Positions 20,918 to 54,500 of a stretch of DNA of 64,000 bases are shown here, piece by piece. The stretch covers positions 193,076-257,075 of the forward strand of contig JBFWVL010000005.1 of the NCBI GenBank assembly GCA_050246755.1, in the 5' to 3' direction. The stretch comes from Bacteriovoracia bacterium (GTDB taxonomy: Bacteria; Bdellovibrionota; UBA1018; CAIPTA01). Within the stretch, counting starts at the first letter, position 1. Each line of letters begins with the position of its first letter. The position numbers and the translations under genes were made by a program. A model generated the notes under the pieces. The model searched no databases. It saw only the letters and a program-made list of their open reading frames with translations, and was not told the DNA's origin.

Positions 20918-23408
20918 GGGCTTCAAGACCGTACTTCGAATATTCTGGCGAACTGCACTCGTCTTGGCTCTGGTTTCTTGTGGTGGGTCTTCAGCGAATC
21001 TGCCGAATTCTACGAGCACGACCCCAGGATCGTCTTCCTCATGTGGGGAGACAGTAGTGGACTATGGTCAGAAGGGGGTGGCTGCCGCAACCGTTAGAGG
21101 TATCTATACCGATATCGCCATGGTTCCGGGAACTACCAAGACGGCCATGGCCTACTTCGATACGGCCGCTCTCGGAGTGAAGTTCACGTATTGGAATGGA
21201 TCGAGTTTTTCCACGGAGATGGTTTCCGCTGGGACAGCCACCTGGGTGCGCTTGGCATTTTTGTCGAATGGCAAGCCAGTGGTGTTTTGGTCTACTGGAA
21301 GCACTACAGTATTGGCTTCTTTTCGGTCGGCCGCTCCTGGGACAAGCGGAACTTGGAATACAGGTATCATTGATACTTTCACTGGAGGCCAAACGAGGGC
21401 GGTTTCCGTATCGGTGAGTCCGCTTGACGCGATCGCATTGATCTATATCAGCACTGCTGCCGCGACGGGGCGTCCACGCTTTCTCTATTGCGATGCGAAC
21501 TGCTCTTCCCCCAGTACTTTTCAGGCAATGTCGTCTACCGAAACCATTGAAGCGGCAAACGTTACTGCAAACGAAATGGCGACGGGTATTGGCTGGTGCA
21601 AGGCAAGTTCCTCTCTTTATTATCCTGCCGTGACGTATGGTCTTTCCACTGCCAGTGGAACTCGTTATGCAATTTGCCAGCAGGCTAGCCTCTCAAGTTG
21701 CCTCGCAGCAGCGAATTGGACCAAACAGACAATCCAGGCCACGGCGAGTCTTGTCGGATCTCGGCTTTACTTAGATCCCACTGTAACTGGAGACGTTCCA
21801 AAGGCCATGGTCAAGACCGCAGCCGGGCTGGTGCTTTACCAAATGGGTGCTTCGACCGCCTGCACGGCCGCGCCCGTGGCCTTCGGCGCAGGCTCCACGT
21901 TGGGGGATGCCAATACTGGAACCGCCTGGGCAAGTCTTCTCGCTGATTCTTCCGGAAAGTGGCATGTTGTCGCGAATCAAAGCACTACGAATGTTCGCTA
22001 CTACAATAGCCAAACCACTTCGATCACGGGTGCTTGGAATGCCGTAGGAACCGTTGTTACTAACACGCTCAACAGCGTGACTGCTTCGTCAGCCGGAGCC
22101 GCGATCTCTAATTCGGATGGTCGCCTTCACGCCGCATACGGAATTAACGCGGCTCCTTTCAATGTTCAGCTCAGTACCCTGGCGGATTATACTACTGCTT
22201 CGAGTAGTGCGACCTTTAGCACGCAAGCCCCGGATTCAACGGGAAACGTACTAATGACGGCGGCCCCGGTGCGAAACGTGGCAACGGCTATAACCTCAAC
22301 GGGCCGGGCGGCGGCAGCGTATGTTGATTTCTCTGCCGGCACAGTTACGGCAGGAAAACTCAAATATGCTATTCGCTCCGGAACTGATGCCACTTCTACC
22401 TGGACCAGCTTGACCGTACCAGGCCCAACAAATCCGCAGTTCCCATCAATTGCTTTCGACGGCGATAATCATCCTTGGATCGGCTTCTTTGATCAAACGA
22501 TAAATCGCTTTTATCTGGCCACGAACTCTAGCGTCGAGGGAACAGGGTCTTGGTCGATTTATACTTTTCCTGTAACGCCTAGTGGAACATATGCGTTGCC
22601 CGCCGCAAACGAAACCGCTGTCGCGATGTATAAGAGCGGCACCACCTATTATCCGGTGATGCTTGCCTTGGATGCGACCAATACGAATACAACTCCGGGG
22701 CTTAAATCAGCGATGTTTAATCCCTCTTCGTCTACTTGGTCAAATGTCAATGATGGTACGCCGGTGTATGCCTTTGGTGCCTCCGACGGGAATTCGCTCT
22801 CCGCAGATTTCGACTCTTCAGGCAATGTAGTGGCAGCGTACTGGGATATTACGACGACAAAGGTTCTCTACTTTCATTCCTCTAACGGCGGCCAAACCTG
22901 GACCTCCGGCTATGCTGTTACCTCCGCAGGCGACGGAGAGGGCGCCTCGGTTAGCCTTAGCGCTGCGACGGGCTATTCCGGCCTTTCTTATTTCGATAGA
23001 GCCAACAATCGAGTTTACTATGCCTATTGCAACAACTCACCGAGCACTTGCGCCTCCGGGGGGTGGGCTTCCACGAGGCTCGAATCTACAGCGGGTGTTA
23101 GTGGGCTTACCACTTCGACCGGCCAGGTGTTGGGAACTGGCGTAGGATTCGACTCAAGCGGCAATGCTTCGATTGCCTACGTTACTGGGCAGGCCGGACT
23201 TGGCAGCCTGAAGCTTTGCACGCAAAGTGGATCAAATTTCAGCTGCTCTACGGTTTCCGAGGGGGCCGGGGGAAATACAGTTGGCGCGGCAGCCGTAAAC
23301 TACGGAATCAGTGGTTGGAACGTCAGGATGACGAGAAATTCTTCTGGCGGGCTGGCAGCAAACTATATTGGGCCGGCAGGCTGGCTATACAACTATTCTT
23401 GCCAGTAA
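20907..23408 (+). CDS. Large Ser/Thr-rich repeat lipoprotein, probable double beta-propeller
   Basis: MRSKGFK..LALVSC lipobox; repeated A(A/M)AY.D and YYP motifs; Asp-box SSNGGQTW. Confidence 0.75.
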   Translation: MRSKGFKTVLRIFWRTALVLALVSCGGSSANLPNSTSTTPGSSSSCGETVVDYGQKGVAAATVRGIYTDIAMVPGTTKTAMAYFDTAALGVKFTYWNGSSFSTEMVSAGTATWVRLAFLSNGKPVVFWSTGSTTVLASFRSAAPGTSGTWNTGIIDTFTGGQTRAVSVSVSPLDAIALIYISTAAATGRPRFLYCDANCSSPSTFQAMSSTETIEAANVTANEMATGIGWCKASSSLYYPAVTYGLSTASGTRYAICQQASLSSCLAAANWTKQTIQATASLVGSRLYLDPTVTGDVPKAMVKTAAGLVLYQMGASTACTAAPVAFGAGSTLGDANTGTAWASLLADSSGKWHVVANQSTTNVRYYNSQTTSITGAWNAVGTVVTNTLNSVTASSAGAAISNSDGRLHAAYGINAAPFNVQLSTLADYTTASSSATFSTQAPDSTGNVLMTAAPVRNVATAITSTGRAAAAYVDFSAGTVTAGKLKYAIRSGTDATSTWTSLTVPGPTNPQFPSIAFDGDNHPWIGFFDQTINRFYLATNSSVEGTGSWSIYTFPVTPSGTYALPAANETAVAMYKSGTTYYPVMLALDATNTNTTPGLKSAMFNPSSSTWSNVNDGTPVYAFGASDGNSLSADFDSSGNVVAAYWDITTTKVLYFHSSNGGQTWTSGYAVTSAGDGEGASVSLSAATGYSGLSYFDRANNRVYYAYCNNSPSTCASGGWASTRLESTAGVSGLTTSTGQVLGTGVGFDSSGNASIAYVTGQAGLGSLKLCTQSGSNFSCSTVSEGAGGNTVGAAAVNYGISGWNVRMTRNSSGGLAANYIGPAGWLYNYSCQ

Positions 23409-26772: not shown

Positions 26773-26870
26773 GTGGCCGGAATCCTGGCCGGGTAGATAA
26801 ACAAAAATCCTCTTTGTTTTCGGACTCGTTTCCAAAGCATCACCTGGGCCGTGGCCAGAAATCTGGCCAC
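26773..26870. promoter_or_regulatory. Two putative upstream activator sites
   Basis: GTGGCCG-GAATCC-TGGCCGG (26773-26792) and perfect palindrome GTGGCCAGA-AA-TCTGGCCAC (26851-26870). Confidence 0.7.
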
Positions 26871-26918: not shown

Positions 26919-26933
26919 TGGCACGCTCCTTGC
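26919..26933 (+). promoter_or_regulatory. Sigma54 -24/-12 promoter
   Basis: TGGCAC-GCTCC-TTGC, exact consensus, 33 bp before the activator start. Confidence 0.88.
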
Positions 26934-26966
26934 CCTTAGCAGCACACGCAAGAGAGGTAAGAGCCT

Positions 26967-28385
26967 GTGAAGTATAGGATTTTGCTAGTTGACGATAACA
27001 AGCTAGACATCGAGACGACGCTCGGAGAGTTCGCGGGTGAGGGCGATATGGAGTTCTCCACCGCGCAGACCGCCGAGCATGCGTTGACGCTCGTGAAGCA
27101 ATCCCCCGACGCCTTCGCCGTTGTCCTGCTCGACTACAATCTGGCGGGCACCACCGGCGACAAGGCAGCAAAAGACCTACTTGCCATCAACGCCCGGCTC
27201 AACATCGTGATTCTCTCGGGCGATAACACGCGCGCCGCCGCGATCAACACGCTCAAGGCCGGGGCGGTGGATTTCATCGACAAGACACTACCGCCGGAGG
27301 AGAAGATCGCGTCCGTCCGGGGCTACTGCCGCAAGTTCGACGAAGTGGCGCGCGTAGTGACTTTCGAGGCCGATGGGTCGGCCCGCGCCAAGATCATAGC
27401 CGACGCCGGGCTTATTATCGGCCGCTCGAAGGCCCTAGCCGAAGTGGCCCAACAAATCCTGCGGATCGGCGGCAGTAGCTCCACCGCGCTCGTGCGCGGG
27501 GAATCCGGTACGGGTAAGGAAGTCGTGGCGCGAGCCATACACGACCACTCCACGCGCAAGGGAAAGGCATTCGTGCCCATCAACTGCGGCGCGATCCCCG
27601 AGAACCTGATCGAAAGCGAGCTATTCGGCCACGAGAAAGGCACGTTTACCGGCGCTCTTACGAAAAAGGTCGGAAAATTCCAGCTCGCGCACGGAGGGAC
27701 CATCTTCCTCGATGAGATCGGGGAAATGCCGCTCAATATGCAGGTGCGCCTCCTGCGGGTTTTGCAAGAGGGAACGATCGACATGATCGGCGGCCGGATG
27801 CCGATGCCGGTTGACGTTCGCGTGATCGCGGCCACGAATCGAGATCTCGAAGAAGCCGTAAAAAAAGGCCAGTTCCGCGAAGACCTCTACTACCGCCTCA
27901 ACGTGATTCCGTTCTACGTGCCGCCGCTCCGAGAGCGCAAAGAAGACATTGAGCCGCTAATCTCTCATTTCGTGCGTAACCACCCAACGGGTTCCGGCAA
28001 AAAGTTCCTCTACAGCACACTAAGATACTTCCTTGATTATCCGTGGCGCGGGAACGTGCGCGAGCTGGAGAACACCATCGACCGCGTGCTTACCCTCACG
28101 CCGGATGAATACATTTCCCCTCGGCACCTGGAACCAAAGTTTTTCGGCAACGACGCCTCGGGCCTGGACTTCGATTGCGATTGGCAGACGTTTCTCGACC
28201 AGAAGAAAAAGCGCGAGGACGAGCTGGATCGGAAATTCATTTCCTACCATCTGACGAAGCACAAGTCGGTGCGCGATCTCGCCAAGTCGAAGCTCAAGAT
28301 GCCGAAATCCACTCTCCAGACTCGTATCAACGAGCTTGAAATCGACGCCGAGGAACTTACGAAGTCGGAGGAGGAATATGCTTAA
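26967..28385 (+). CDS. Sigma54-dependent response regulator (REC-AAA+-HTH, NtrC family)
   Basis: LVDD/LLDY receiver, GESGTGKE, GTFTGA, FLDEIGE, REDLYYRLNV, WRGNVREL, C-terminal HTH. Confidence 0.95.
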   Translation: MKYRILLVDDNKLDIETTLGEFAGEGDMEFSTAQTAEHALTLVKQSPDAFAVVLLDYNLAGTTGDKAAKDLLAINARLNIVILSGDNTRAAAINTLKAGAVDFIDKTLPPEEKIASVRGYCRKFDEVARVVTFEADGSARAKIIADAGLIIGRSKALAEVAQQILRIGGSSSTALVRGESGTGKEVVARAIHDHSTRKGKAFVPINCGAIPENLIESELFGHEKGTFTGALTKKVGKFQLAHGGTIFLDEIGEMPLNMQVRLLRVLQEGTIDMIGGRMPMPVDVRVIAATNRDLEEAVKKGQFREDLYYRLNVIPFYVPPLRERKEDIEPLISHFVRNHPTGSGKKFLYSTLRYFLDYPWRGNVRELENTIDRVLTLTPDEYISPRHLEPKFFGNDASGLDFDCDWQTFLDQKKKREDELDRKFISYHLTKHKSVRDLAKSKLKMPKSTLQTRINELEIDAEELTKSEEEYA

Positions 28386-29463
28386 GCAGGTTTCCGAATC
28401 CTTGGAGCGCGCGGTGTTGGGTTGGATCAACGTGGACCGCTACCTCCCGCTCCAGATCGACATTACCAACGCGTGCAATTTACGCTGTAAACATTGCTAC
28501 CACCCGCACCACAAAAACGCGGGAGCCCTTGAGCTAAGCGATTGGCTGGCGATCCTCGACCAATACGACGCCCTGACGAGAAAGCTCCGCTTCCGCCCGA
28601 ACGTAGTCATCTGCGGAGGCGAGCCGTTCTTGAGCCAGCACTTCGAGACAATCCTGCAAAACCTGCTCTCTCGTGAGAGGCCGTACCGCCTATCCGTGCT
28701 CACTAACGGCACGATCGTTGACCCGGCGAAGCTCGCGCTCCTCAAACAGTTCCCCGAGCTGAGCGTGCAGGTCAGCCTAGACGGCCCGAATGCCGAGGCT
28801 CACGATTCCGTGCGCGGGGCCGGCAACTTCGCGCGGGCGCTGAATGGGATTCGTATTTTCCGCGAGCGCGGAATCAGGGTTCACCTCTCTGCGGTTCTCT
28901 CGAAGCGCACCTCCCGCTCGATCGGGGAGTTCTTCGACCTCGCCCGAGAGCTCAACGTGACCGGTATGGGCTTCGCCCGCCTGATCGTGCAGGGATACGC
29001 GCAGAAGCTCGTTACCGAAAACGAAGACCGCCCGCTCTCGCCGCTGGAGTTGCGGGACGCCTACCGCGCCCTCATCATGGATGCCGCCCGCACCGGGATA
29101 AAGACGAGCACTAACTCGCCGCTGTTCCACCTCGTGCAGCCGGGCCTCGGGCGTAACGGCCGCTTTTGGGAAGGAATCGTGATCGACTACCGGGGAAACT
29201 ATCTTGCCAGTAGTCGCTCGCGCCTAATCCTGGGCCACGCCCTTACCGAAGGGATCGAAAATATTTTCCTGCGGCACCCGCTCTTGCAGCGCCTGCGTCG
29301 GCAGGATGTGAAAGTTTGCGGGGCTTGCCCGCACTACGCCGTGTGCGGCGGTGATCGGAATGCGGCTTACGCCGATTCCGGCGACTTCCTGGGGGCCGAT
29401 CCCGGTTGCTGGCTTTTGACGAAACAAAATCAAACAGCTGAGGAGAAAATATGCGCTTCCTGA
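28378..29463 (+). CDS. Radical SAM enzyme with partial SPASM domain
   Basis: CNLRCKHC, GGEP, TNG, VSLDG..HDSVRG, CGACPHYAVCGGD..DPGC; GGAGG SD before ATG at 28378. Confidence 0.92.
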   Translation: MLKQVSESLERAVLGWINVDRYLPLQIDITNACNLRCKHCYHPHHKNAGALELSDWLAILDQYDALTRKLRFRPNVVICGGEPFLSQHFETILQNLLSRERPYRLSVLTNGTIVDPAKLALLKQFPELSVQVSLDGPNAEAHDSVRGAGNFARALNGIRIFRERGIRVHLSAVLSKRTSRSIGEFFDLARELNVTGMGFARLIVQGYAQKLVTENEDRPLSPLELRDAYRALIMDAARTGIKTSTNSPLFHLVQPGLGRNGRFWEGIVIDYRGNYLASSRSRLILGHALTEGIENIFLRHPLLQRLRRQDVKVCGACPHYAVCGGDRNAAYADSGDFLGADPGCWLLTKQNQTAEEKICAS

Positions 29464-29789
29464 AAAAACTGACCCTGACCGTTCTTTCCGTCATGCCCAT
29501 CGCCTCGATTTCCACCGTGGCCTACTGCCAGCTCAACGAGCTGGTCGGTGAGGAACAGAACGATCTGCTGCGTGGGCAAATCTCTTCGGCTCACGCGCTC
29601 CTGATGGCTCCCGGTACGGTTTCGACGACTGAGGAAGAATCGAAGGTCTATCTTTCTCAGCAAACCGGCATCACCGACCCCAAGGAGCTTGAAGACGAGT
29701 TCCAGCGGCAACTGCGTGTGCTGGTGGAAAAGGGATTGGTAGAGAAGAACGAGAGGAACATCACTTCTAAAATTCCAAGCGAATGGTAG
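29451..29789 (+). CDS. Small secreted protein, candidate RiPP/signal precursor
   Basis: GAGGAG SD, Sec-type signal (..AYC/Q), overlaps the rSAM gene, C-terminus ITSKIPSEW. Confidence 0.7.
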   Translation: MRFLKKLTLTVLSVMPIASISTVAYCQLNELVGEEQNDLLRGQISSAHALLMAPGTVSTTEEESKVYLSQQTGITDPKELEDEFQRQLRVLVEKGLVEKNERNITSKIPSEW

Positions 29790-29794
29790 AGTGA

Positions 29795-31318
29795 ATGAGG
29801 CGCGTTTTCGTTCTCATCACTTTGGGTTTGGCGCTCGGAGGTTTTTGTATGCAGCAGCTCGAAGGACAGAAGAGAAGAATCCGCGTGGCGTTTGGAAGCC
29901 CCTGGAAGACGACTCATCCGGGACTCCAGCACACGCTCGTCGGCGATCTTGTCCTGAGCAACCAGTACGAGGCGCTGGTCGGCATGAATGAGTTCGGCGT
30001 CGCCGTACCTCTCGCCGCGAAGTCTTGGGACGCGAGCGAGGATTTCAAGACGTTCACCTTCCATATCGACACGAGTAAGACGTTCTCCGACGGTGAGCAC
30101 CTTTCCGCGCGGGACTTCAAGCGGTCTTGGGAAGATGCCTTGGCGCTGGAGCCGAAGTCGAGCAATAGCAGCCTCCTCGACATTATGTATAAGATTCGGG
30201 GCTTCTCGGATTTCCCGAAAACGAAAACCATTTCTGGCATCGAGGTCGTGGACGACTCTACGCTCCGCATACACTTCGACTCCGCGTTCCGCATGGCCCT
30301 GAGCCATTTCATGGGAAACCGTTTCGCCGTCTATAAGGAGAAGGATGGTAAGTTCCTCGGGACGGGAAAGTTCGTGATCGACGAGCGGGCCGAGAATGAT
30401 CTGCTGTTCGCGCCGAATCCCCGCGATCCCGACGCGAAAAATCTGCCTTCCATCGAGGTTTCAGTCGTGAGAACCGACGAGGCGACGGCGCGCCTGCTCG
30501 ATGGTACGATCGATGTTTTCGCCTACGGGCGGGGCTCTTCCGTTTCGCCTACGATCAAAGAGAGCGGAAAGCTCTCCGTGGTCGTTGGTCAGGATGCCCT
30601 GCACGAGACGACGATCCTGAACCTTAAACATGGAAGGTTCTTTCACAACCGCCAGTATCGCCTGGCGATGCAATACCTCATCCACAAGAAGTTTTCCGCG
30701 GAGCCGGCGCTGCTCGGAAACACGGATTACTCGTCAGTGGACGCGCAGGTGTTTCTGCCGCTCCAGCCGGGCCGGATTCCAGATCAAGACGTAGAAAAAA
30801 TCATCGACAGTGGCGAGCGTTTCGTGCTGGAAATGATCGCCGCGACCAAGAAGCACCCGCTGCTGGTCTACACTTCGGAAAGCGACGATTGGCTGCTCCC
30901 ATTTCTCCGCGAGATCGGCGTGGCCGTGTCGCCCGCCTCAAAGAAAATTTCGCCGCAAGAGCGGGTCAATGTCATCTACAAGTCACACGAGCCCGACATG
31001 ATCGTGACGGCGTTCGGCGTTGCAAGCGGCGATCCCGATGGGGTCTACCACCGTCTAGGAAAGTCAGGGGCGATTATGAGCCCCATGTGCTTTAGCGAGC
31101 GCGTTTCCGCGCTCTTGGAAGATGGGCGCAAGCTGGTCGCGCAAGATCAGCTCGATCCCTTCTACCAGGGGGTGAGCCGGGCGATCCTGGAGGAAGTTCC
31201 CTTCGTTCACTTGGGGTACAGCAAAGCCGTCGCCATCTACCGAAAGGATACGGTGGACTTCGACTCCAAGCTCCTGCGCCGAAACGAGGGGCATCTACAC
31301 GGATTCAGGTTGAGGTAA
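29795..31318 (+). CDS. Family 5 (OppA/DppA-like) solute-binding protein, no permease nearby
   Basis: YEALV..PLAAKSW..TFTFHI..FSDG..SARDFKRSW, GTGKF. Confidence 0.88.
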   Translation: MRRVFVLITLGLALGGFCMQQLEGQKRRIRVAFGSPWKTTHPGLQHTLVGDLVLSNQYEALVGMNEFGVAVPLAAKSWDASEDFKTFTFHIDTSKTFSDGEHLSARDFKRSWEDALALEPKSSNSSLLDIMYKIRGFSDFPKTKTISGIEVVDDSTLRIHFDSAFRMALSHFMGNRFAVYKEKDGKFLGTGKFVIDERAENDLLFAPNPRDPDAKNLPSIEVSVVRTDEATARLLDGTIDVFAYGRGSSVSPTIKESGKLSVVVGQDALHETTILNLKHGRFFHNRQYRLAMQYLIHKKFSAEPALLGNTDYSSVDAQVFLPLQPGRIPDQDVEKIIDSGERFVLEMIAATKKHPLLVYTSESDDWLLPFLREIGVAVSPASKKISPQERVNVIYKSHEPDMIVTAFGVASGDPDGVYHRLGKSGAIMSPMCFSERVSALLEDGRKLVAQDQLDPFYQGVSRAILEEVPFVHLGYSKAVAIYRKDTVDFDSKLLRRNEGHLHGFRLR

Positions 31319-33012
31319 TGGGGCCTATCACGCTCAATCATTGGTTTCAGCGGAATGCGAGCCGGCCCTTTGCTTTGCTGGCCGTCTTTATCGCGCTCGT
31401 TTGGCTGGTCCATCTTTGGGCCTTCAACAGTGAGATTTCTACCCAACAGAGAGAGGCCGCCCGCCAGCTTGCCAACCTCCTGAGCCTTTCTTCGAGCCAG
31501 AAGAACCGCGTGCTCACGGAATCTCTGCTGGACTCCAGCCACTTGAGCTTTGCGGCAGAGGCCGCAGCCATGTGCAACGGCGGCGTGGTCGTCGCGTCGT
31601 CGAACGCCGATAACAGTTTTTGCGGCCGGCCCGGTTCTTTCTTCTATCCCAAAATGTCCTTTCCAATTCCTGGGAGCGGTGGCGCTCAGCTCGTGACGAC
31701 TTATTCAAGGTTCGGGGAGCGCTCGAACATTTGGCGCTTTTTCCTGTTCGGCCTGGCTCTCACCTGGGGCTGCTACGTACTGCTATACAAGATCAGGGAA
31801 CGATTCTGGCGCGATATTTTCCTCCCGTTCCAGGCCGGTATGATGGATGACCAGCCGCTGCCGATCGTAGAATTTGAGCAGGTTCGCCAGAAACGTAAGC
31901 TCATCGTGCAGGCCAAAGAGCGCGAAGCCGTGCTCCAGGCCGTGCTGGAGCACAAAAGCAAGGTTGCCCACAATATCAAATCCCCGCTCCGCACCCTGCA
32001 ACTGCTTCTGCAATCGCTAAAAGGAAAAATTCCCGAGCGTGAGGAGCACCTGCTCGAAGGCGTGGCTGATTCCGTGAATGACATTCTTGGGGAGCAGCAG
32101 GCACCGTTTGCGAATGGTGGCGAAGTCTCCGATGCGCTCGCGGGGAATCCACAGCCCCAAGAGCCGGAGCTCGTGCTCGTGTCGGATTTTCTCGACGAGG
32201 TACTGGCGCAGAAGTCAGCCGAGTACGCGAGGCAGAAAGCCATTTCCCTCTCGGTGGATCAATCGGAGGTGCCCTTCGGCACGTTCGCCCGAGTGGTGAG
32301 GCACGAGTTCCTAGCGATCCTTTCCAACCTCGTGAACAACGGAGTTGAAGCCATTGGCCGCCGTGCGGGCCGCGTGGAGATCGTCGCCCGCGTGAAGGAT
32401 GGCGCGATCCAGATCCAGGTGCGCGACACCGGCCCCGGCGTTCCCGAGGATCGGCGGGAAAAAATCTTCGAGAAGGGGGTTTCCTTCAAGCAAGGCGGTA
32501 CGGGCTTCGGGCTCTTCCATGCCCGGCAATACCTGGCGCAGTGGCAAGGAACCATCCAATGCCTGCCGTCGCCGCAAGGCGCGATCTTCGAGATCGGGCT
32601 GCCGGAGGCCAAGGCCCCGCCCTGGTTCGCCGATCGCGTGGCGGCTCTCGCCAAGCGGAACGTCATCATACTGGACGACAACCGGCTGATCCATCGCGTT
32701 TGGAAAGAGCGGTTCCGCAATCTGCCAGGGATGGAGAGAGCGAGACTTCACTTTCTTTCGAGCGAGGAGGAGCTAGAAGCCTGCCTCGGCGAAATCGCGG
32801 CCGAGGTATCCGATACGATCATCCTCTGTGACTACGATTTGAACCTGGCGGGAAAGACGGGCCTCGACATTGTGCGCGCCTACGGCGTGGCCTCGCTCAC
32901 TACGATGGTCACGAACAACTTTCAGAGCGGCGCGCTCATCGCGGAGTGCCTGCGCGAGAAAATCCGCATCCTGCCCAAGCCTTGCATCCATAGCGTACCG
33001 ATCACCGCCTAG
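31318..33012 (+). CDS. Membrane sensor histidine kinase with C-terminal receiver domain
   Basis: Two TM helices, AHNIKSPL, NLVNNG, DTGPG, GTGFGL, then ILDD..CDYDL..PKP. Confidence 0.92.
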   Translation: MGPITLNHWFQRNASRPFALLAVFIALVWLVHLWAFNSEISTQQREAARQLANLLSLSSSQKNRVLTESLLDSSHLSFAAEAAAMCNGGVVVASSNADNSFCGRPGSFFYPKMSFPIPGSGGAQLVTTYSRFGERSNIWRFFLFGLALTWGCYVLLYKIRERFWRDIFLPFQAGMMDDQPLPIVEFEQVRQKRKLIVQAKEREAVLQAVLEHKSKVAHNIKSPLRTLQLLLQSLKGKIPEREEHLLEGVADSVNDILGEQQAPFANGGEVSDALAGNPQPQEPELVLVSDFLDEVLAQKSAEYARQKAISLSVDQSEVPFGTFARVVRHEFLAILSNLVNNGVEAIGRRAGRVEIVARVKDGAIQIQVRDTGPGVPEDRREKIFEKGVSFKQGGTGFGLFHARQYLAQWQGTIQCLPSPQGAIFEIGLPEAKAPPWFADRVAALAKRNVIILDDNRLIHRVWKERFRNLPGMERARLHFLSSEEELEACLGEIAAEVSDTIILCDYDLNLAGKTGLDIVRAYGVASLTTMVTNNFQSGALIAECLREKIRILPKPCIHSVPITA

Positions 33013-33830
33013 CTCGGATACTTCGCAATCTGATCGAGAAGCAAATTCTTTCCATCGACGCAGCGAAAACTGCACGCCAACCCGATTTTCAACCCCGCCT
33101 TACCGCTCAGCCGAGCGCCGGGAAGAACCGCCGGAGTGCCCATCACGAGCTTCATGGGAAAGGCGGTATAAAAGTGCTCGTTCTTCATAAGGCAGACGAC
33201 GACGGCCACGTTTGCGGAAGGGTTTGCCTGGCAGTAGACGCTGAACTTGGTGTCGTACTTCCGTTCGATCCACTCCTCAATTTGATCTGGTACAGAGGCA
33301 ACGGGTCCGTTCACGCGATTCGGCGTTACCGCGTCGAAGAGCAGGATAGGGTTACCGTTCGGATCGAGAATCGCTACGTCGGCATCCTTTGGCTGTTGGC
33401 CCTTCGTTCCTTGCCCCAGCGGATACTCGATTACGACCTTGTGCCCCGGCAGCCTGCTTAGGATACTCCGGGCCAGCAGCAGCTCGTTGAGCGTATCCCA
33501 AAACGAAGAGGAGCGCAGGTTGCAGAGCTTGTCGCCGAGTTTCCTTCGCTCGTCGGCCATCAAAGAAAACTCAGTGATGGCCGCCTCGATATTCAGGAGC
33601 GCGCCCTGTGGCGTGGCGGCGTTATTACCCTGCTGGGAAAGCCCCGCCTGCTCGGAAATCAGCAGCGCCGTAAAAAGGTCCGTAACCTCGTTATCGTTGA
33701 CCTCCGGGCCGTACGGATACTTCTTCTGCGCCTGGGCGGTGAACTTCGCGCGGTCAACGCACGAGGATAGCACGGGGTACTTGTCCAAGACCTTGAAGGC
33801 GTCGGCTATAGAGCCTGGAATAGCTGCCAT
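33009..33830 (-). CDS. Hypothetical protein, possible restriction-endonuclease-like fold
   Basis: Long ORF (ATG at 33830; track start 33917); FWDTLNELLLA..KDADVAI..LLFDAV. Confidence 0.55.
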   Translation of the reverse strand: MAAIPGSIADAFKVLDKYPVLSSCVDRAKFTAQAQKKYPYGPEVNDNEVTDLFTALLISEQAGLSQQGNNAATPQGALLNIEAAITEFSLMADERRKLGDKLCNLRSSSFWDTLNELLLARSILSRLPGHKVVIEYPLGQGTKGQQPKDADVAILDPNGNPILLFDAVTPNRVNGPVASVPDQIEEWIERKYDTKFSVYCQANPSANVAVVVCLMKNEHFYTAFPMKLVMGTPAVLPGARLSGKAGLKIGLACSFRCVDGKNLLLDQIAKYPS

Positions 33831-33968
33831 GGAGCCATTATTCCACGAGCCAGATAGTGGCTCCAGCCGCGTCGCCCCATGATGGGCGTATGAAACCAAA
33901 AGCGGCCGAGCTGCCATCTGCCCGCGCTTGGCGGCAGGAAAAGCCAGGTGCTTTCGCCCACTTTCCGT

Positions 33969-34045
33969 GTGGCCAAATCTCTGGCCGCATCCAATTCGGC
34001 GAAAATCAGCGGCTTACCTACGCTCGCGGCCATGAATCTGGCCAT
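33969..34045. promoter_or_regulatory. Two putative upstream activator sites
   Basis: GTGGCCA-AATCTC-TGGCCGC (33969-33988) and GCGGCCA-TGAATC-TGGCCAT (34026-34045), same motif as 26773/26851. Confidence 0.7.
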
Positions 34046-34117: not shown

Positions 34118-34132
34118 CGGCATGGTTTGTGT
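34118..34132 (+). promoter_or_regulatory. Possible variant sigma54 promoter
   Basis: CGGCAT-GGTTT-GTGT (GG-N10-GT instead of GC), 32 bp before ATG at 34165, preceded by an AT-rich tract. Confidence 0.45.
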
Positions 34133-34164
34133 CTATAGGACTCCCAAGAACGGAGGTTCCTAGT

Positions 34165-34473
34165 ATGTCGAACACGAAACAACAACGGAAAGAAAAGAAG
34201 TGGCGGCTCCCGCGCCGCGACTCCTGCCCGCTCTGCGGCTGCAAAGAGCTGCTGACGGAAGGGCCGGATCAGTTCTGCCTTTCCTGCCCTTGGGATACCT
34301 GCGCCGAGTACGTCGAACGCGGCCTGATGAACAATCTTTCTCTCGCCTACGCGGAGCATTTCGTGTGGGGCCGCGAGCCGCGCAAGCCGCAGCCCGAGGG
34401 CGAGCTGGCGAGCGTCTTCGTGGATCGTGCCGCCGGCCCCTTGCTCGCGGCGGAAGTCGGGAAGGTTGGTTGA
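34165..34473 (+). CDS. Zinc-ribbon protein
   Basis: GGAGG SD; CPLC..CLSC. Confidence 0.7.
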   Translation: MSNTKQQRKEKKWRLPRRDSCPLCGCKELLTEGPDQFCLSCPWDTCAEYVERGLMNNLSLAYAEHFVWGREPRKPQPEGELASVFVDRAAGPLLAAEVGKVG

Positions 34474-34475
34474 TT

Positions 34476-34619
34476 ATGAGGACCATTGGCAAGGCATGGG
34501 GCCGCATCGCGGCCTCGCGGGCGTATCGAAAACTTTTCGTCGCCGAGATCGACCCCAAGAGGGTCGAGCAAATGAAAGAAGAGATGATGCAGAAATTCCG
34601 CAGAATGGGGTTCTTTTGA
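34476..34619 (+). CDS. 47-aa basic protein
   Basis: MRTIGKAWGRIAASR..MGFF, starts 2 nt after the upstream stop. Confidence 0.5.
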   Translation: MRTIGKAWGRIAASRAYRKLFVAEIDPKRVEQMKEEMMQKFRRMGFF

Positions 34620-34651
34620 TCCGGGAAGAAGAAGTGGGAGGGCATTTGTTT

Positions 34652-34981
34652 ATGAGCTTCGCAAGGCAAGTGGACCATGTGGGCATGAGAAAGAAGCTGG
34701 CGACGATCGCCACGATCGGAGAATCGCAAATTTCGCGGGTCGAACGGGAGCGGCTGTTCGTGCATACGGCGCTTTCGTACCTGCCGACCAGGGCGCGCAC
34801 GATCCTGTTTCTGCGCTTCTGGCAGGACTCCTCGTTCTGCGAAATCGCCGACGCGCTCAATCTGCCGATGCGGCTCGTGCGTGTGCTGTTCTTTCTCTCC
34901 CTCACGTATCTGGAGCGCGAACTTCGGCCGTACATCATCGAGCCCGAAGATTTCATCCGGGGGTACATCAAAGTTAGCTGA
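34652..34981 (+). CDS. Sigma70 region 4-like HTH protein
   Basis: GGAGG SD; LSYLPTRARTILFLRFWQDSSFCEIADALNL. Confidence 0.75.
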   Translation: MSFARQVDHVGMRKKLATIATIGESQISRVERERLFVHTALSYLPTRARTILFLRFWQDSSFCEIADALNLPMRLVRVLFFLSLTYLERELRPYIIEPEDFIRGYIKVS

Positions 34982-35038: not shown

Positions 35039-35389
35039 ATGGAAAATCAGAAAGATCAAAAGCAGCAGAGCCCGAAGCTGGGCCTCTTCTGGATTGATAC
35101 GGTAACCGGGAAGAGGTACGCCGCTGGCGTTGGCTTCTTCCTGCCGGAGTACGGGGAATTTCGGCTGAAAATCGACGGACCTTGGAACGAGGGCCAGGTG
35201 TTCGTCAAGCCGGTGAACGGCCAGAACGATCGCGTGAACTACCGCGTGGAAGTCGTCATCAAGAGCGGTGGCCGGTTCTCGCACCGGAGCGAGATCGGAT
35301 CGGGATACATGGACAAGAACACGGGCGGTTTCATCTACATGGACCTCGGCCCGTTCAGCCGCTGCCTCGCGCTCGAAGTCGAAGGCTAG
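35039..35389 (+). CDS. Hypothetical beta-rich protein with internal duplication
   Basis: KRYAAGVGFF..FRLKID and RSEIGSGYM..IYMDL. Confidence 0.65.
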   Translation: MENQKDQKQQSPKLGLFWIDTVTGKRYAAGVGFFLPEYGEFRLKIDGPWNEGQVFVKPVNGQNDRVNYRVEVVIKSGGRFSHRSEIGSGYMDKNTGGFIYMDLGPFSRCLALEVEG

Positions 35390-35701: not shown

Positions 35702-36019
35702 ATGGAGCTGCAATCGTCTAGCGTGCAACGAAGGCTAGACGCGAAGCTGAAGATCGCGGGGCTGGAGGCCCCCGATCTTCTCTTCGTGATGATCTTCGCT
35801 GCGGTGATGGATCTCTTTTTCGGCCGCACGAGCCTCGCGCTTCCGCTCGTGATCGTGCTGCCGGCCGCTCTCCTCGGCGTTCTCTACGTGGGGAAGCGCG
35901 ATAAGCCCGAGGGGTTCCTGGTTCATTTAGCCCGTTTTTACCTGACGCCTGGATTTCTCAGCGCAGGGGAGGAGTCGAAACACGAAGAACAGATGAGAAA
36001 ACCCATTTTTGGTAAGTAA
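35702..36019 (+). CDS. virB3: VirB3-like membrane protein
   Basis: LDAKLKIAGLE..two TM..KPEGF; between pilin and VirB4. Confidence 0.7.
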   Translation: MELQSSSVQRRLDAKLKIAGLEAPDLLFVMIFAAVMDLFFGRTSLALPLVIVLPAALLGVLYVGKRDKPEGFLVHLARFYLTPGFLSAGEESKHEEQMRKPIFGK

Positions 36020-45866: not shown

Positions 45867-46109
45867 TTGCCAAAAAGTTCATTTGGTAATAGAGTAGAAA
45901 GCACAAGTCAGGCCCTCAAAAAGCCTGACACGCTCTTTGAAAATTTCAGATGGTTAAACACGCGTGAAGCAGCGGTGTACCTGGGCACAACTCCGAAACA
46001 GATTCGGAATTGGGTCTATCAAGGAAAAATCAAAAGCTACAAACTTCTCGGGCGTAGTCTCCGATTCAGGGTTCAAGACCTCGACTCCTTACTCAAAGGA
46101 GTTTGGTAA
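45867..46109 (+). CDS. Excisionase-type HTH protein
   Basis: WLNTREAAVYLG..IRNWVYQGKI..LRF..DLD; TAATG overlap with the integrase. Confidence 0.85.
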   Translation: MPKSSFGNRVESTSQALKKPDTLFENFRWLNTREAAVYLGTTPKQIRNWVYQGKIKSYKLLGRSLRFRVQDLDSLLKGVW

Positions 46110-47263
46110 TGGGAGTTACGTCATACCGAAAGGAAGTTTCCCCCGGCGTCTTCAAGACTTTTTATCGAGTCACCGCCGAGGGCGTAAATAAGTACACCAG
46201 AAAAAGAATCCAGAAGAGACGCATCGGGATTACCTCTAAACCGAAGGCTGACGGTATTTTCCGCGAGCTGTGGGTTCAATGCCGAGAGGAGCGGCCGGAC
46301 GGCCCCCGCATCGAAAGATGGGGTGAGCTGACGGACGCCTACCTCCGCTACGTCGAGAGCCAGGTGAGGAGCGAAACCAATAAAACGGGTTTCAGCCCCA
46401 AGACCCTGGAGAAGAAAAAAAGCCGCTTCGTCCATGTGAAGGAGTGGAACGATTCTCACCTCGACCTCATCACTCCGAAATGCGTGAAGGAAACGCTAGA
46501 CGCCCTCGAAATGCGCGGCCTCGCTGGCCGCGCGTTGACGAGCGAAATCCAAAAGGAAGTGCGTTGTGTTTTCGGTTACGCGGTGGATTGCGGGTATCTC
46601 AAGGTCAACCCGTTGGCCGAGATGACGAAGCGGGAGGTTCCGAAGAGAAAGAAAAAGGCGCTCAACCCCGAGGAGGTTAAAATCCTTCTCTCGGAAGCGC
46701 GCCAGCGGAACCACCCTTACTTTTTCATCTGGCTGTTCTCGATAGCCTTGGGATTGCGGCGGAGCGAGCTGGCGGGCCTCAAGTGGTCAGACATTGATTT
46801 CGATAATGGGCTGATTACTGTGCAGCGCCAGAACCTTCCAAAAGAAGGCATCGTAGACCGTCCGAAGGATAAGGAAGAGCGAACCGTCGCTATTCCTGCA
46901 TCCGTCGTCACGGCTCTCAAGGAATGCCGCCTCAGTTCGCAAAGCGAGTTCGTGGTGGACATTGACTGTAACCAGTGGAAAGGCGGCCACCAGGCCGCCG
47001 TGTTGCGGGAGTTCTGCCGAGAGATCGGCATTAAGGAAGTAACGCACCACCGGCTACGGGCGACCCATATAACGCTCGCGCTAATCAGCGGCATCCCCAT
47101 CGGGATCGTGAAAGAGAACGTGGGGCACGCCAAGCTGAGCACGACGGATGAATACTTCAGCTCGTCGGGTATCCAGATGCGCGGTCAAATGGATGGATTG
47201 AAAATCAACGTGCCTACGGGACAGGAGGCCGAAGTCGTGCCGCTCATGGGGGCGGCGCGATGA
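46109..47263 (+). CDS. Tyrosine recombinase/integrase
   Basis: GLRRSEL, K, HRLRAT, GHA, TDEY catalytic set. Confidence 0.95.
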   Translation: MGVTSYRKEVSPGVFKTFYRVTAEGVNKYTRKRIQKRRIGITSKPKADGIFRELWVQCREERPDGPRIERWGELTDAYLRYVESQVRSETNKTGFSPKTLEKKKSRFVHVKEWNDSHLDLITPKCVKETLDALEMRGLAGRALTSEIQKEVRCVFGYAVDCGYLKVNPLAEMTKREVPKRKKKALNPEEVKILLSEARQRNHPYFFIWLFSIALGLRRSELAGLKWSDIDFDNGLITVQRQNLPKEGIVDRPKDKEERTVAIPASVVTALKECRLSSQSEFVVDIDCNQWKGGHQAAVLREFCREIGIKEVTHHRLRATHITLALISGIPIGIVKENVGHAKLSTTDEYFSSSGIQMRGQMDGLKINVPTGQEAEVVPLMGAAR

Positions 47264-51526: not shown

Positions 51527-54500
51527 TCAGTGCTGGTCGGTAGAAGGGTTATCTGCCACGGTCAGCTTTTTTCCGGGCTCATTGGGGCCGGCGGTCCGTT
51601 TGCGGCCCACGCCTTTCTTGAGCCAGATATGAATAACCGATAGCAGTTTGTCGGGATCTACGGGCTTGGTGATATAGTCCGAAGCGCCGGCTTCGAGCGC
51701 TTTATCGCGGTCACCCTTCATGGCTTTCGCCGTGAGCGAGATGATCGGCAGGCGCTTGAACTTATTGTTCTTGCGGATCTCGGAGGTGGCCGTAAGACCG
51801 TCCATTTCGGGCATCATGGTATCCATGAGCACGATGTCCACGTCGGCATTCTCTTCCAGCAGTTTGATCCCGGCCTTGCCGTTCTCCGCGTGGAGAACCT
51901 TGATGCCACGAGACTCGAGGATCGAGTTAATGGCGAAAATATTGCGGATATCGTCGTCCATCAGCAGGATTTTCTTGCCGGAGAAATCCACGCCCTCGGG
52001 CAGGGCAGGGATATCAGCATTGTTCTCGGTGGAGGCTACGGTTTCGGTGCTCTCGCCTCTCGAGGCCTCAGGCCCCATATAGTTCTGCGGCATGTAGAGG
52101 GTGAAGGTGGAACCCGCGCCCGGAACGCTCTCCACGCGAATCCAGCCACCGAGCAAGCGCGCGATTTCGCGGCTGATCGTGAGGCCGAGGCCCGTGCCGC
52201 CGTATTTGCGGCTGGTGGTGCCATCGGCCTGCTGGAAGGCTTCGAAGATGAGGTTCTGTTTTTCGGCCGGAATCCCGATGCCCGTATCCCGCACCGCGAA
52301 GGCGATAATGGGCTGGGCCGGATTGGCCGTAGCGGCGACGCCTAGTTCTTTGGCGTCCGGCATGGAGATGGTGAGGTCCACTTTGCCGGTTTCCGTGAAC
52401 TTGAACGCGTTCGAGAGCAGATTCTTCAGGATCTGATTCAAGCGGTTCGAATCCGTGAACATATCGGCCGGTAATCCAGGGCCCATCTTGATATCGAAAT
52501 CGAGCCCTTTCTGCGCAGCCATATGGCGGAAGGTTTGCTCCACGTACTCTTGGATTTCGGGAACGCGGATCTTCTTGGGGTAGATCGGCATTTTGCCGGC
52601 TTCCACTTTGGATAGATCGAGGATCTCGTTGATGAGGCCGAGGAGATCGTTTCCGGAATCAAATACGGTTTTCGCAAACCGCACTTGCTCGCCGGTGAGG
52701 TTCCCGCCTTTGTTCTCCGAGAGCATTTTCGAGAGGATCAAGAGAGAGTTCAGTGGCGTTCTTAATTCATGGCTCATATTCGCCAAGAATTCGCTCTTAT
52801 ACTTCGAAATGAGCTGGAGCTGTTCGGCCTTCTCTTCCACGGAGCGGGAAGCGAGTTCCACCTCCTGGTTCTTGATCTCGAGCAGCTTGGCTTTCTCGTT
52901 CAGTTCTCCGGCTTGCGCCTCGAGCTCGGCGTTGGAACGCTTCAGCTCCTGGAGCAGCTCTTCCGTTCTCATGGAAGAGGAGATCATGTTCAAGATTACA
53001 CCGATGGAGTCCATGAGCTGATCGAGGAAGCTCAGCTGGTTGGGGCTGAACTGCTTGAAGGAAGCGAGCTCGATCACGGCTTTGGTTTCACCCTCGAAGA
53101 GCACGGGCAGTACCACCACTTGCTTCGGCGGAGCCTCGCCCAAACCCGACTGGATCTGGATGAAGTTTTCCGGGATATCGGTGAGGAGAATGCGCTTCTT
53201 CTCGTAGGCGCACTGGCCGATGAGATTTTCCTTCAGCTTGTAGTGCGTCTGGAGGTTCTTGCGAACGGTGAAACCGTAGCTCGCGATCAGGTTCAGCATC
53301 GCGTCGCCTTTTTCGCTGTTCTCCATCATGAAGAACCCGCCATGGTGGGCATCAATGAGGGGAGTGAGTTCGCTCATGATCAGCTGAGCCACCGACACGA
53401 TATTCCGCTGGCCTTGCATCATCCCGGAGAACTTTGCGAGGTTGGTCTTCAGCCAGTCTTGCTCTTGGTTTTTATTCGTCGTGTCCTTCAGGTTGGAGAT
53501 CATCTGGTTGATGTTATCTTTCAACTGAAGTACTTCGCCCTGCGCTTCCACGTTGATCGAACGGGTAAGGTCACCCTTCGTTACGGCGGTGGATACGTCG
53601 GCGATGGCGCGCACCTGAGACGTCAGGTTACCGGCGAGCTGGTTCACGTTGTCGGTGAGCTCTCTCCAGGTACCGGCGGCGCCGGGTACTTTGGCCTGAC
53701 CACCAAGTTTTCCTTCGATTCCTACTTCCCTGGCTACCGTCGTTACTTGGTCGGCGAAGGTACGAAGCGTATCGGTCATGGAGTTAATCGTCTCGGCCAA
53801 GGCGGCCACTTCCCCTTTGGCTTCGAGTACGAATTTCTGGTTCAGGTCTCCGTTGGCTACGGCCGTAACTACTTTCACGATCCCGCGCACCTGCGTGGTG
53901 AGGTTGGAGGCCATGAAGTTTACGTTGTCGGTGAGATCCTTCCAGGTTCCGGCTACCCCGGGTACCCGGGCCTGGGCTCCGAGTTTTCCTTCGATACCTA
54001 CCTCGCGGGCAACCGTGGTTACCTGATCGGCGAAGATACGGAGCGTGTCGGTCATGGAGTTAATAGTTTCGGCGAGCGCCGCTACCTCTCCTTTGGCTTC
54101 GAGGGCGAACTTTTGGTTAAGGTCTCCGTTCGCTACGGCCGTTACTACTTTCACGATACCTCGCACTTGCTTGGTAAGGTTGGAGGCCATGAAGTTCACG
54201 TTATCGGTGAGATCCTTCCAGGTTCCGCTCACGCCTTTTACTTCGGCCTGGCCCCCGAGCTTTCCTTCAGTACCTACCTCTTTTGCTACCCTCGTTACCT
54301 CGGCGGCGAAGGAGTTGAGCTGGTCCACCATCGTATTGATGGTGTTTTTCAGTTCGGCGATTTCGCCCTTGGCATCTACCGTAATTTTTTGCGACAAGTC
54401 GCCCTTCGCTACGGCGGTCGTTACCTTCGCGATGTTACGCACTTGGTTGGTGAGGTTAGAGGCCAATTGGTTTACGTTATCGGTGAGATCCTTCCACGTA

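Follow-up and report, generated by a model that had tools for sequence, protein, structure and literature searches.

Peptide control of horizontal transfer is well known in Gram-positive bacteria, conjugation being reportedly controlled by cCF10 with PrgZ/PrgX on pCF10 and by RapI-PhrI on ICEBs1, and transfer in diderm bacteria is usually gated by small molecules, e.g., acyl-homoserine lactones. For the streptococcal RaS-RiPPs such as streptide (RiPPs being peptides of ribosomal synthesis that are modified post-translationally), an SHP signal and an Rgg receptor are said to regulate the operon of the radical S-adenosylmethionine (rSAM) enzyme, in a monoderm host with an ATP-binding cassette (ABC) exporter and with the RiPP itself not being the sensed signal. 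LuxP-LuxQ, CBP-ChiS and TorT-TorS are reportedly sensor kinase systems that depend on a solute-binding protein (SBP). Bufferins are MNIO-modified RiPPs made from precursors of 80-120 aa that carry a Sec signal (PMC11626156), and in the HXS system the rSAM enzymes HxsB/HxsC mature the signal-peptide protein HxsA, which is periplasmic in a diderm (PMC13128918). The stretch of DNA considered here, hereafter the window, comprises 64,000 nt of a Bacteriovoracia bacterium (Bdellovibrionota; UBA1018; CAIPTA01; GCA_050246755.1, JBFWVL010000005.1:193,076-257,075), and its region 26,919-33,012 (all positions are those of the window) carries a cassette in which an rSAM enzyme, a small precursor-like protein, an SBP and a histidine kinase (HK) follow a sigma-54 activator. 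This cassette may represent an autoregulated periplasmic peptide-sensing circuit of a Bdellovibrionota conjugative-element family, licensing conjugation, the most likely of the readings considered, although we place its chances slightly below even. The five genes are the following.

26967..28385, + strand: NtrC-type response regulator (RR), with a REC domain, a sigma-54 AAA+ domain with GTFTGA loop and a helix-turn-helix-like C-terminal end (Pfam, NCBIfam, translation)
28378..29463, + strand: rSAM enzyme, likely starting at ATG 28378, with TTG 28336 as alternative (Pfam, NCBIfam, motif alignment)
29451..29789, + strand: 112-aa precursor-like protein, with signal-peptide-like N-terminus, small alpha/beta domain and disordered tail ending IPSEW
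29795..31318, + strand: orphan family-5 SBP (OppA/DppA/NikA-type; SBP_bac_5), with an N-terminal hydrophobic segment
31318..33012, + strand: two-transmembrane (two-TM) HK, with H-box AHNIKSPL and HATPase_c, extended at the C-terminus by a receiver-like part

An earlier sequence-only reading of this DNA had described five co-oriented, overlapping or abutting open reading frames (ORFs), and all of them are present in the ORF list and its translations. The rSAM gene overlaps the end of the RR gene, the small-protein gene shares 13 nt with the rSAM gene, and the stop of the SBP gene is overlapped by the start of the HK gene. Domain calls were made with Pfam and NCBIfam (curated cut-offs), and none of the five proteins attains the cut-off of an NCBIfam model.

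Conservation of this arrangement was explored by searching the rSAM enzyme in 400 other genomes of the phylum, including 7 of its own family, where it is patchily present in 16/400 genomes and in 0/7 of the family; a search of its own genome returned one orthologue only. The locus set combined loci from phylum genomes with 80 metagenome loci, of which 40 (27-32% rSAM identity) were left out of the tallies as a separate clade, and the synteny tallies refer to the remaining 60 orthologous loci (rSAM identity 37-78%; individual loci are designated L005 and the like). With the reservation that these loci are kin, so that counts overstate their independence, the SBP comes after the rSAM gene in 35/36 loci with at least 900 nt downstream, and SBP and HK are both found after it in 29/29 loci whose downstream DNA is 3200 nt or longer. 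In 10 of the 34 loci with enough upstream DNA, the sigma-54 activator adjoins the rSAM gene upstream. Because SBP and HK nearly always follow and the activator is adjacent in so few loci, the conserved core is of four genes (rSAM, small protein, SBP and HK), the activator being an addition, and the RR-less four-gene version is found in ordinary chromosomal contexts. This outcome of the synteny check bears out the proposal that the gene set is a conserved functional unit rather than a group of chance neighbours.

Some loci depart from the common layout. At L036:1958-3747 (genome G056) the small gene is shortened to 95 aa by an insertion with two long overlapping ORFs, taken as an insertion sequence (read without a family search), and only the last ~117 residues of the SBP are left; the same truncated small ORF lies ~120 nt before a contig end in L035 (G379), and both loci read as a naturally disrupted cassette copy. 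At L076:7135-10044, two tandem SBP genes lie between the small gene and the kinase.

The strongest evidence that the activator controls both the cassette and a second operon comes from the sites that precede the two; the second operon lies further downstream and leads into type IV secretion system (T4SS) genes.

26775..26790, + strand: palindrome-like site 1a (GGCC-N7-TGGCC type), candidate activator site with its centre ~138 nt before the -24 GG
26853..26868, + strand: palindrome 1b, perfect TGGCCAGA..TCTGGCCA when extended to 26852-26869, with its centre ~60 nt before the -24 GG
26919..26933, + strand: sigma-54 promoter P1, TGGCAC-N5-TTGC, 34 nt before the RR start codon
33971..33986, + strand: palindrome 2a, motif as in 1a/1b (motif match)
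34028..34043, + strand: palindrome 2b, motif as in 1a/1b (motif match)
34118..34132, + strand: sigma-54-like promoter P2, GGCAT-N5-GTGT, with non-canonical -12, 33 nt before the Zn-ribbon gene
34165..34473, + strand: small protein with a Zn-ribbon (CxxC...CxxC), whose gene opens the T4SS-leading operon, with ribosome-binding site GGAGG at 34153

The RR belongs to the NtrC-type sigma-54 enhancer-binding regulators, as indicated by its Pfam domains (Response_reg, PF00072; Sigma54_activat, PF00158, E 2.6e-71; AAA_lid_14), the GTFTGA loop of its AAA+ domain, the exact P1 ahead of its gene and the presence of rpoN in the host genome (G000:C3). P1 is the sole exact match in the 64-kb window, versus 0.08 expected, and at least one match occurred in 7/100 shuffles; when one mismatch to the 16-mer is allowed, 2 matches are found versus 1.6 expected, no better than chance. 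A P1-type promoter precedes the RR gene in L032-L035, i.e., in 4/4 close relatives with upstream DNA, and the exact sigma-54 promoter reported at first sight ahead of the cassette is thus a kept one, of sigma-54 type.

The motif GGCC-N7-TGGCC gives 11 strand matches at 7 sites of the window, versus 0.79 expected, and four of these sites are the pairs before P1 and P2. L032, L034 and L035 use another palindrome, GACC-N8-GGTC, with three copies each before the RR sigma-54 promoter; the same palindrome stands before the Zn-ribbon gene as an exact copy in L032 and as a one-mismatch copy, found by eye, in L034, L035 ending earlier. L032 holds 4 such sites versus 0.16 expected. Counterparts of the Zn-ribbon gene occupy the same place in L005, L029, L032, L034, L044 and L056, and a -24/-12-like element is found directly before it in the window, L005, L029, L044 and L056; in the last four it reads TGGCA[CT]-N5-.TG[TC], with a palindrome ~100-150 nt upstream. 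In these four elements the cassette and the Zn-ribbon operon are divergent, and the operon continues into T4SS genes in L029, L044 and L056. Since the palindrome sequence differs between elements and yet recurs at both promoters within an element, the activator appears to control its own operon as well as the T4SS-leading one.

Beyond the Zn-ribbon gene, the window continues with the genes of a conjugative element.

34427..34981, + strand: sigma-70 region 4 protein, start codon uncertain
35039..35389, + strand: 116-aa conserved element protein of no family, with a homologue in L034
35411..38432, + strand: VirB2-like pilin, VirB3-position gene and VirB4 ATPase (Pfam for pilin and VirB4)
40960..44868, + strand: CagX/VirB9-like protein, TrbI/VirB10-like protein, FtsK-type coupling ATPase and Replic_Relax protein (Pfam)
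46103..47263, + strand: tyrosine integrase, 61% identical to the L034 integrase, which sits on the other side of the cassette

T4SS genes, coupling ATPase, Replic_Relax protein and tyrosine integrase thus form one block at 35.4-47.3 kb (Pfam), in agreement with the integrative and conjugative element (ICE) context proposed for the cassette. The VirB3-position gene (35702-36019) has no Pfam match and is labelled from gene order and from homologues adjoining VirB4 at other loci; homologues of the VirB2-like, VirB3-position and VirB4 genes adjoin the cassette in L029, L032, L034, L044 and L056. The opposite placement of the L034 integrase is what a circularly permuted element with an internal cassette would give. 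No att-like direct repeats flanking the element were found, and the relatives from genus and family are too divergent to place its borders, those of the genus being 65-75% identical in DNA. In the loci with long flanks, 4/7 cassettes with the activator are flanked by T4SS genes versus 0/12 without it, and the window and L032 add two cassettes with both activator and T4SS genes (6/9 in all). The association with ICEs claimed at the outset therefore stands for the activator version, which is tied to T4SS elements, and fails as an intrinsic property of the circuit, with 24/34 loci lacking an adjacent activator and no T4SS genes beside such cassettes where the flanks are long (0/12).

Between the kinase and P2, a 302-aa ORF (33009-33917, - strand) has no Pfam or PADLOC match, and the same position holds a 399-aa ORF in L032 and ORFs of 486 and 504 aa in L034, so placed that it looks like a variable cargo slot. 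At 51527-57148 (- strand) lies an 1873-aa ORF in which a repeat of 276 nt (92 aa) occurs in 11 tandem copies at 53.5-56.7 kb; the 3' part of this ORF (from ~51.6 kb) matches DNA of the genus relatives. Elsewhere in the same genome, at C6:51363-52759 and C6:164290-165012, the integrase region (in a 73% identical copy) and the 45.0-45.8 kb segment occur a second time; a second related element may be present, without a second cassette. Contigs of 4 sequencing runs were compared with the window, and one other study showed the same sequence with the same flanks; many spurious joints fell in the conserved AAA+ region, and neither borders nor transcripts emerged from the comparison. None of the sequencing runs listed was of RNA. 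In the activated-sludge run X8, the listed contig pieces over the chromosomal flank (21000-21881) differ from the window at ~5-9% of positions, and those listed over the SBP and HK genes (30549-32617) are identical to it; this contrast is a weak hint of an element shared between diverged hosts, or equally of a strain mix.

The small protein was then considered as the candidate signal. In the window it ends in SKIPSEW and belongs to no Pfam family, and five homologues, all of 112 aa, were found in a collection of 5.8 billion proteins. Across the loci, an extraction that was itself motif-guided, the Pro of the motif being fixed by construction, recovered in 41/45 cases a small ORF whose N-terminus follows the pattern [KR][KR]..L..L[AS].LP[ILV][AS]S[VI][SA]FAA; within the pattern, L is found at -4 in 34/41 and A at +7 in 36/41. 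Every rSAM-SBP gap that is long enough holds a small ORF, and reading of the ORF lists by hand revealed similar ORFs missed by the filter in L107 and L074 and no room for one in L057 and L083. Lengths range from 49 to 139 aa, with 14/41 proteins being of at most 75 aa, i.e., a signal peptide plus ~25-35 residues. The N-terminal ~24 residues are the most conserved part, and the tails are variable and Gly/Ser/Pro-rich, often but not always ending near an aromatic residue; the N-termini of the SBPs at the same loci share no consensus.

RiPP precursors have a conserved N-terminal leader followed by a variable core, and for this reason the small protein looks like one, as had been anticipated from the window. 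Its leader seems to double as the Sec signal peptide, a rare arrangement with precedent in bufferins and, for rSAM enzymes, in HxsA. The Lys-Trp crosslink that the sequence-only reading gave as an example is not supported for it, since the Lys varies even within the five homologues of 112 aa and not every tail has an aromatic residue at its C-terminus. A streptide-like crosslink was accordingly discarded as a general feature, Lys being replaced by His or Ser in 4/5 homologues.

An AlphaFold2 model built from 16 sequences (mean predicted local distance difference test score 68.5, ~80 for residues 60-90) displays a long helix, a beta-alpha-alpha-beta-beta domain at 58-106 and a free tail, the last 6 residues being outside the domain. 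Foldseek comparison of this model with the PDB returned nothing at E 0.001 or better, the best match (E 0.036) being winged-helix-like; structural neighbours in the ESM Atlas were likewise winged-helix-like only, with no usable match by features. For 16 of the small proteins, Pfam searches with E values of up to 10 revealed no recurring family.

The rSAM enzyme belongs to the rSAM superfamily (PF04055, Radical_SAM, E 2.4e-23), and its catalytic motifs are intact, with C33, C37 and C40 (CX3CX2C) and GGEP invariant in 14/14 sequences. At the C-terminus, CX2CX5C-GG-D and one distal Cys are invariant in the same 14/14, with an invariant Asp at the usual place of the fourth Cys and no upstream Cys. 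A full SPASM motif has seven Cys for two clusters, the fourth Cys among them; the motif found here suggests a single auxiliary cluster of a partial SPASM or twitch-like kind. All 25 NCBIfam families listed for the enzyme fall below their cut-offs, the best being TIGR04053 with 118.6 bits vs 395. The family comprises 610 proteins at E 1e-10 or better, at least 120 of them at E below 1e-102, with generic names and with Bdellovibrionota as host where one is given; the one named relative is a Bdellovibrionota bacterium.

The nearest solved structures are those of SkfB, anSME, PqqE and CteB, all peptide- or protein-modifying enzymes. In the distant clade set apart above (L091-L132, 27-32% identity), a PqqD protein (PF05402, E 6e-7) is encoded directly downstream of the rSAM gene, followed in L117:6953-10329 and L124:6956-11472 by a 52-54-aa peptide ending in a Cys-rich motif, with squalene-hopene-cyclase/prenyltransferase-like proteins, a large metallo-beta-lactamase-fold protein and a glycosyltransferase as neighbours; these loci appear to be a RiPP cluster family. 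Solved structures and distant clade concur in placing the enzyme, as first proposed, among the kin of peptide and protein modifiers. Comparison of the small proteins with the PqqD proteins of that clade gave an hhalign probability of 0.5% (E 0.12), and no small-protein member matches PqqD at Pfam E up to 10.

That adjacency here goes without shared function, the small ORF not being the substrate and the enzyme having as its target a small molecule or a different protein, e.g., the SBP, is very improbable in our view. The top NCBIfam matches by score do include the tetrapyrrole-modifying AhbD and NirJ, all far under their cut-offs, and the lack of a RiPP recognition element (RRE) would fit as well. 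Nonetheless, the order rSAM, small ORF, SBP, HK is kept over the 60 loci despite their rSAM divergence, the cassette genes overlap or abut, and the small ORF occupies the slot right after the enzyme, which in the distant clade belongs to PqqD, with a small peptide gene coming next.

A further explanation grants that the small protein is the substrate and gives the product an effector role of its own (e.g., entry exclusion, anti-phage action or metal binding), as a periplasmic RiPP or protein whose production under the relevant stress is regulated by SBP, kinase and activator. Bufferins and HxsA provide precedents of periplasmic, Sec-dependent modified small proteins, and NikA-type and metallophore-binding proteins are among the relatives of the SBP. 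On the contrary, neither Cys nor His nor repeats of the HxS type are conserved in the mature small proteins; the rSAM enzyme scores 62.9 bits against the HxsC model, whose cut-off is 267.9, and is hence no member of the HxsC family; and the defence models of PADLOC 2.0 (library from 2023) gave only generic sigma-54 AAA+ and rSAM-core (pVip) matches, with none for small protein, SBP or HK. Moreover, the activator palindromes also stand before the T4SS-leading operon, which better fits transfer control, and the retention of SBP and kinase in 29/29 loci is tighter than the usual coupling of regulator and cargo. An effector role is thus decidedly unlikely.

The SBP is a member of family 5 (cluster C; Pfam PF00496, SBP_bac_5, E 7.1e-34). 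Its profile is nearest, among PDB entries, to OppA, DppE, MppA and NikA, with PrgZ (a pheromone receptor; PDB 4faj) and MbnE also among the relatives. As the sequence-only reading had stated, it comes without ABC permease or ATPase, none being found among the window ORFs annotated at 14.7-51.5 kb; over the loci, the gene after the SBP is the kinase in all 29 informative cases, never a transporter gene, so that the pairing of SBP and kinase proposed from the window is constant. A complex prediction for SBP (residues 26-507) and small protein (27-112) gave 0.00 in both runs, which speaks neither for nor against binding.

The kinase shows the two TM segments originally assigned to it (13-40 and 138-159), its periplasmic loop, of ~97 aa, not being the short one described. 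Its C-terminal extension of ~120 aa is receiver-like, with NCBIfam hybrid-kinase models aligning to residue 555 and a Pfam match of E 0.21 that is not called. Translations read by hand revealed in the loop (31318-31800, residues 1-160) a Cys pair in the context C.NG..V.SS...C, common to the window and L005, which may form a disulfide in the sensor loop. In four elements, those with divergent cassette and Zn-ribbon operon, an ORF of 72-76 aa lies between the RR and rSAM genes (L005:5765-5995; L029:9048-9269, - strand; L044:7801-8022; L056:6799-7017) and displays an invariant His-Asp in the H-box-like context ..LKHDLRGL.GPL... Up to E 0.1, those of L005, L029 and L044 (73-76 aa) have no Pfam match, and that of L056 (72 aa) matches only Ral, with E 0.12; these ORFs may encode a small histidine phosphotransfer protein for the hybrid kinase.

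SBP and kinase might instead sense an external ligand, e.g., a peptide or murein fragment of neighbour or prey cells, with the modified small protein being a threshold-setting periplasmic accessory (adaptor, inhibitor or tethered pseudo-ligand) and not the signal. Solved relatives of the SBP include the murein-tripeptide and oligopeptide binders MppA and DppE, the long forms of the small protein have a predicted alpha/beta domain (its winged-helix-like fold neighbours not being significant), the RR-less version lives in ordinary chromosomal contexts, and kinases with small periplasmic modulators are known, the modulators CpxP and ExoR being reported examples. We nonetheless regard this explanation as rather unlikely, considering that (i) the 14/41 short small proteins leave only ~25-35 residues after the signal peptide, too few for a folded adaptor, (ii) a mere adaptor would not usually come with an rSAM enzyme of its own, and (iii) the most conserved part of the small protein is the N-terminus, which would be lost on export.

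Returning to the peptide-sensing circuit, the gene content, the conserved order, the precursor-like anatomy, the intact catalytic motifs, the promoter and palindrome layout and the T4SS link are its observed components, and they can be assembled as follows: (i) the rSAM enzyme would modify the small protein in the cytoplasm, the N-terminus serving as recognition or leader region and as Sec signal; (ii) by its sequence features and by precedent, the protein would be exported by Sec and its signal peptide cleaved, leaving a periplasmic product of ~25-35 aa for the short forms and ~85 aa for that of the window; (iii) the orphan OppA-like SBP would bind this product, probably via the variable Gly/Ser/Pro-rich tail; (iv) the loaded SBP would act on the periplasmic loop of the two-TM kinase; (v) the kinase would phosphorylate the NtrC-type activator, possibly via a relay; and (vi) the activator on its paired palindromes, with sigma-54, would drive P1, and with it its own operon in positive feedback, as promoter and palindrome anatomy and the co-variation between elements suggest, and would likewise drive the P2 operon (Zn-ribbon, sigma-70 region 4 and T4SS genes), conjugative transfer being thereby licensed.

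Several points weigh against this circuit, besides the kinship of the tallied loci and the motif-guided extraction behind the 41/45 count. An adjacent activator is absent in 24 of the 34 loci. No sigma-54 promoter of the pattern used precedes the RR gene in L005, L029 and L044, L056 has no + strand sigma-54 match between the T4SS genes and the rSAM gene, and the -12 of P2 is non-canonical (TGT, not TGC) in 4/5 elements. No RRE/PqqD domain was found in the rSAM enzyme (Pfam) or elsewhere in the cassette. The tails share no universal residue, 7/41 having neither aromatic residue nor His in the last 16 positions (hand reading), and the folded-looking domain predicted in the long forms may indicate a protein rather than a peptide signal. 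The small His-Asp ORF of L005, L029, L044 and L056 is absent from the window, and if the C-terminal domain of the kinase is a receiver, the relay of the window is therefore incomplete. Finally, no outer-membrane route is visible, which makes between-cell signalling doubtful.

This last aspect bears on cell-density sensing, which the sequence-only reading had proposed and which is not upheld: no exporter but Sec is visible, and many mature forms would be of ~85 aa and unlikely to leave a diderm cell. Long mature forms and the lack of an outer-membrane route speak for a loop that is private or limited to contact, rather than for classical quorum sensing. A more specific version of the circuit, in which a RiPP autoinducer controls conjugation in a diderm, with an rSAM-modified, Sec-exported signal read by SBP, kinase and activator directly switching on a T4SS operon, and with the Sec signal as leader so that no dedicated exporter, protease or RRE is needed, strikes us as rather unlikely.

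Should the circuit hold, it would define an uncharacterised rSAM family, with the at least 120 close members counted above and a defined candidate substrate, a Sec signal peptide under extra sequence constraint, as for a RiPP leader, and a new input route to sigma-54 regulation, from modified peptide through orphan OppA-like protein to kinase. It would also provide a testable model for when mobile elements of predatory bacteria build their T4SS. The two promoters with common palindromes make the regulatory half open to simple reporters.

All parts of the cassette are of known kinds, its combination and wiring being new. A full-text literature search (main texts; mostly titles and listings) returned no paper on an rSAM enzyme with exported precursor, orphan SBP and kinase, with or without sigma-54 activator, and none on sigma-54 control of such a T4SS element, in agreement with the sequence-only reading, to which no described system of this architecture was known. 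The closest systems each share a part of it. Bufferins are likewise long, partly folded-looking Sec precursors modified in the cytoplasm, acting in the periplasm and having no dedicated exporter; theirs are MNIO and not rSAM enzymes, Cys-derived thiooxazoles, copper binding and operons without SBP, kinase or activator (PMC11626156). HXS shares with the cassette an rSAM-matured, signal-peptide-bearing protein that works in the diderm periplasm, but its HxsA, which carries HxS repeats together with a peptidoglycan-binding domain, keeps phage DNA from entering, and signalling genes are not part of HXS (PMC13128918).

The rSAM/SPASM maturases with a discrete PqqD (the L091-L132 clade; SkfB, PqqE, CteB) have in common with the cassette enzyme the rSAM core, the C-terminal CX2CX5C...C and a small gene directly downstream, whereas the cassette is without PqqD/RRE, has an invariant Asp for the fourth SPASM Cys and encodes a signal peptide in its downstream small gene. 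With streptide it would share an rSAM-modified ribosomal peptide linked to a cell-signalling circuit, although the Lys-Trp motif is not conserved here. The resemblance to SBP-dependent kinases lies in a periplasmic SBP that lacks its own ABC transporter and whose gene stands right ahead of that of a membrane kinase (29/29 here); unlike in those systems, the cassette SBP is OppA/NikA-like, its contact with the kinase is a presumed one, and the presumed ligand and an rSAM enzyme are encoded in the same operon. With pCF10 and ICEBs1, the shared traits would be a mobile element with a peptide gene and a family-5 peptide-binding protein deciding on transfer-gene expression. Theirs are monoderm hosts in which unmodified peptides are imported via Opp to a cytoplasmic receptor; the cassette, on the contrary, belongs to a diderm host, has an rSAM enzyme, and would sense in the periplasm, via a kinase and a sigma-54 activator.

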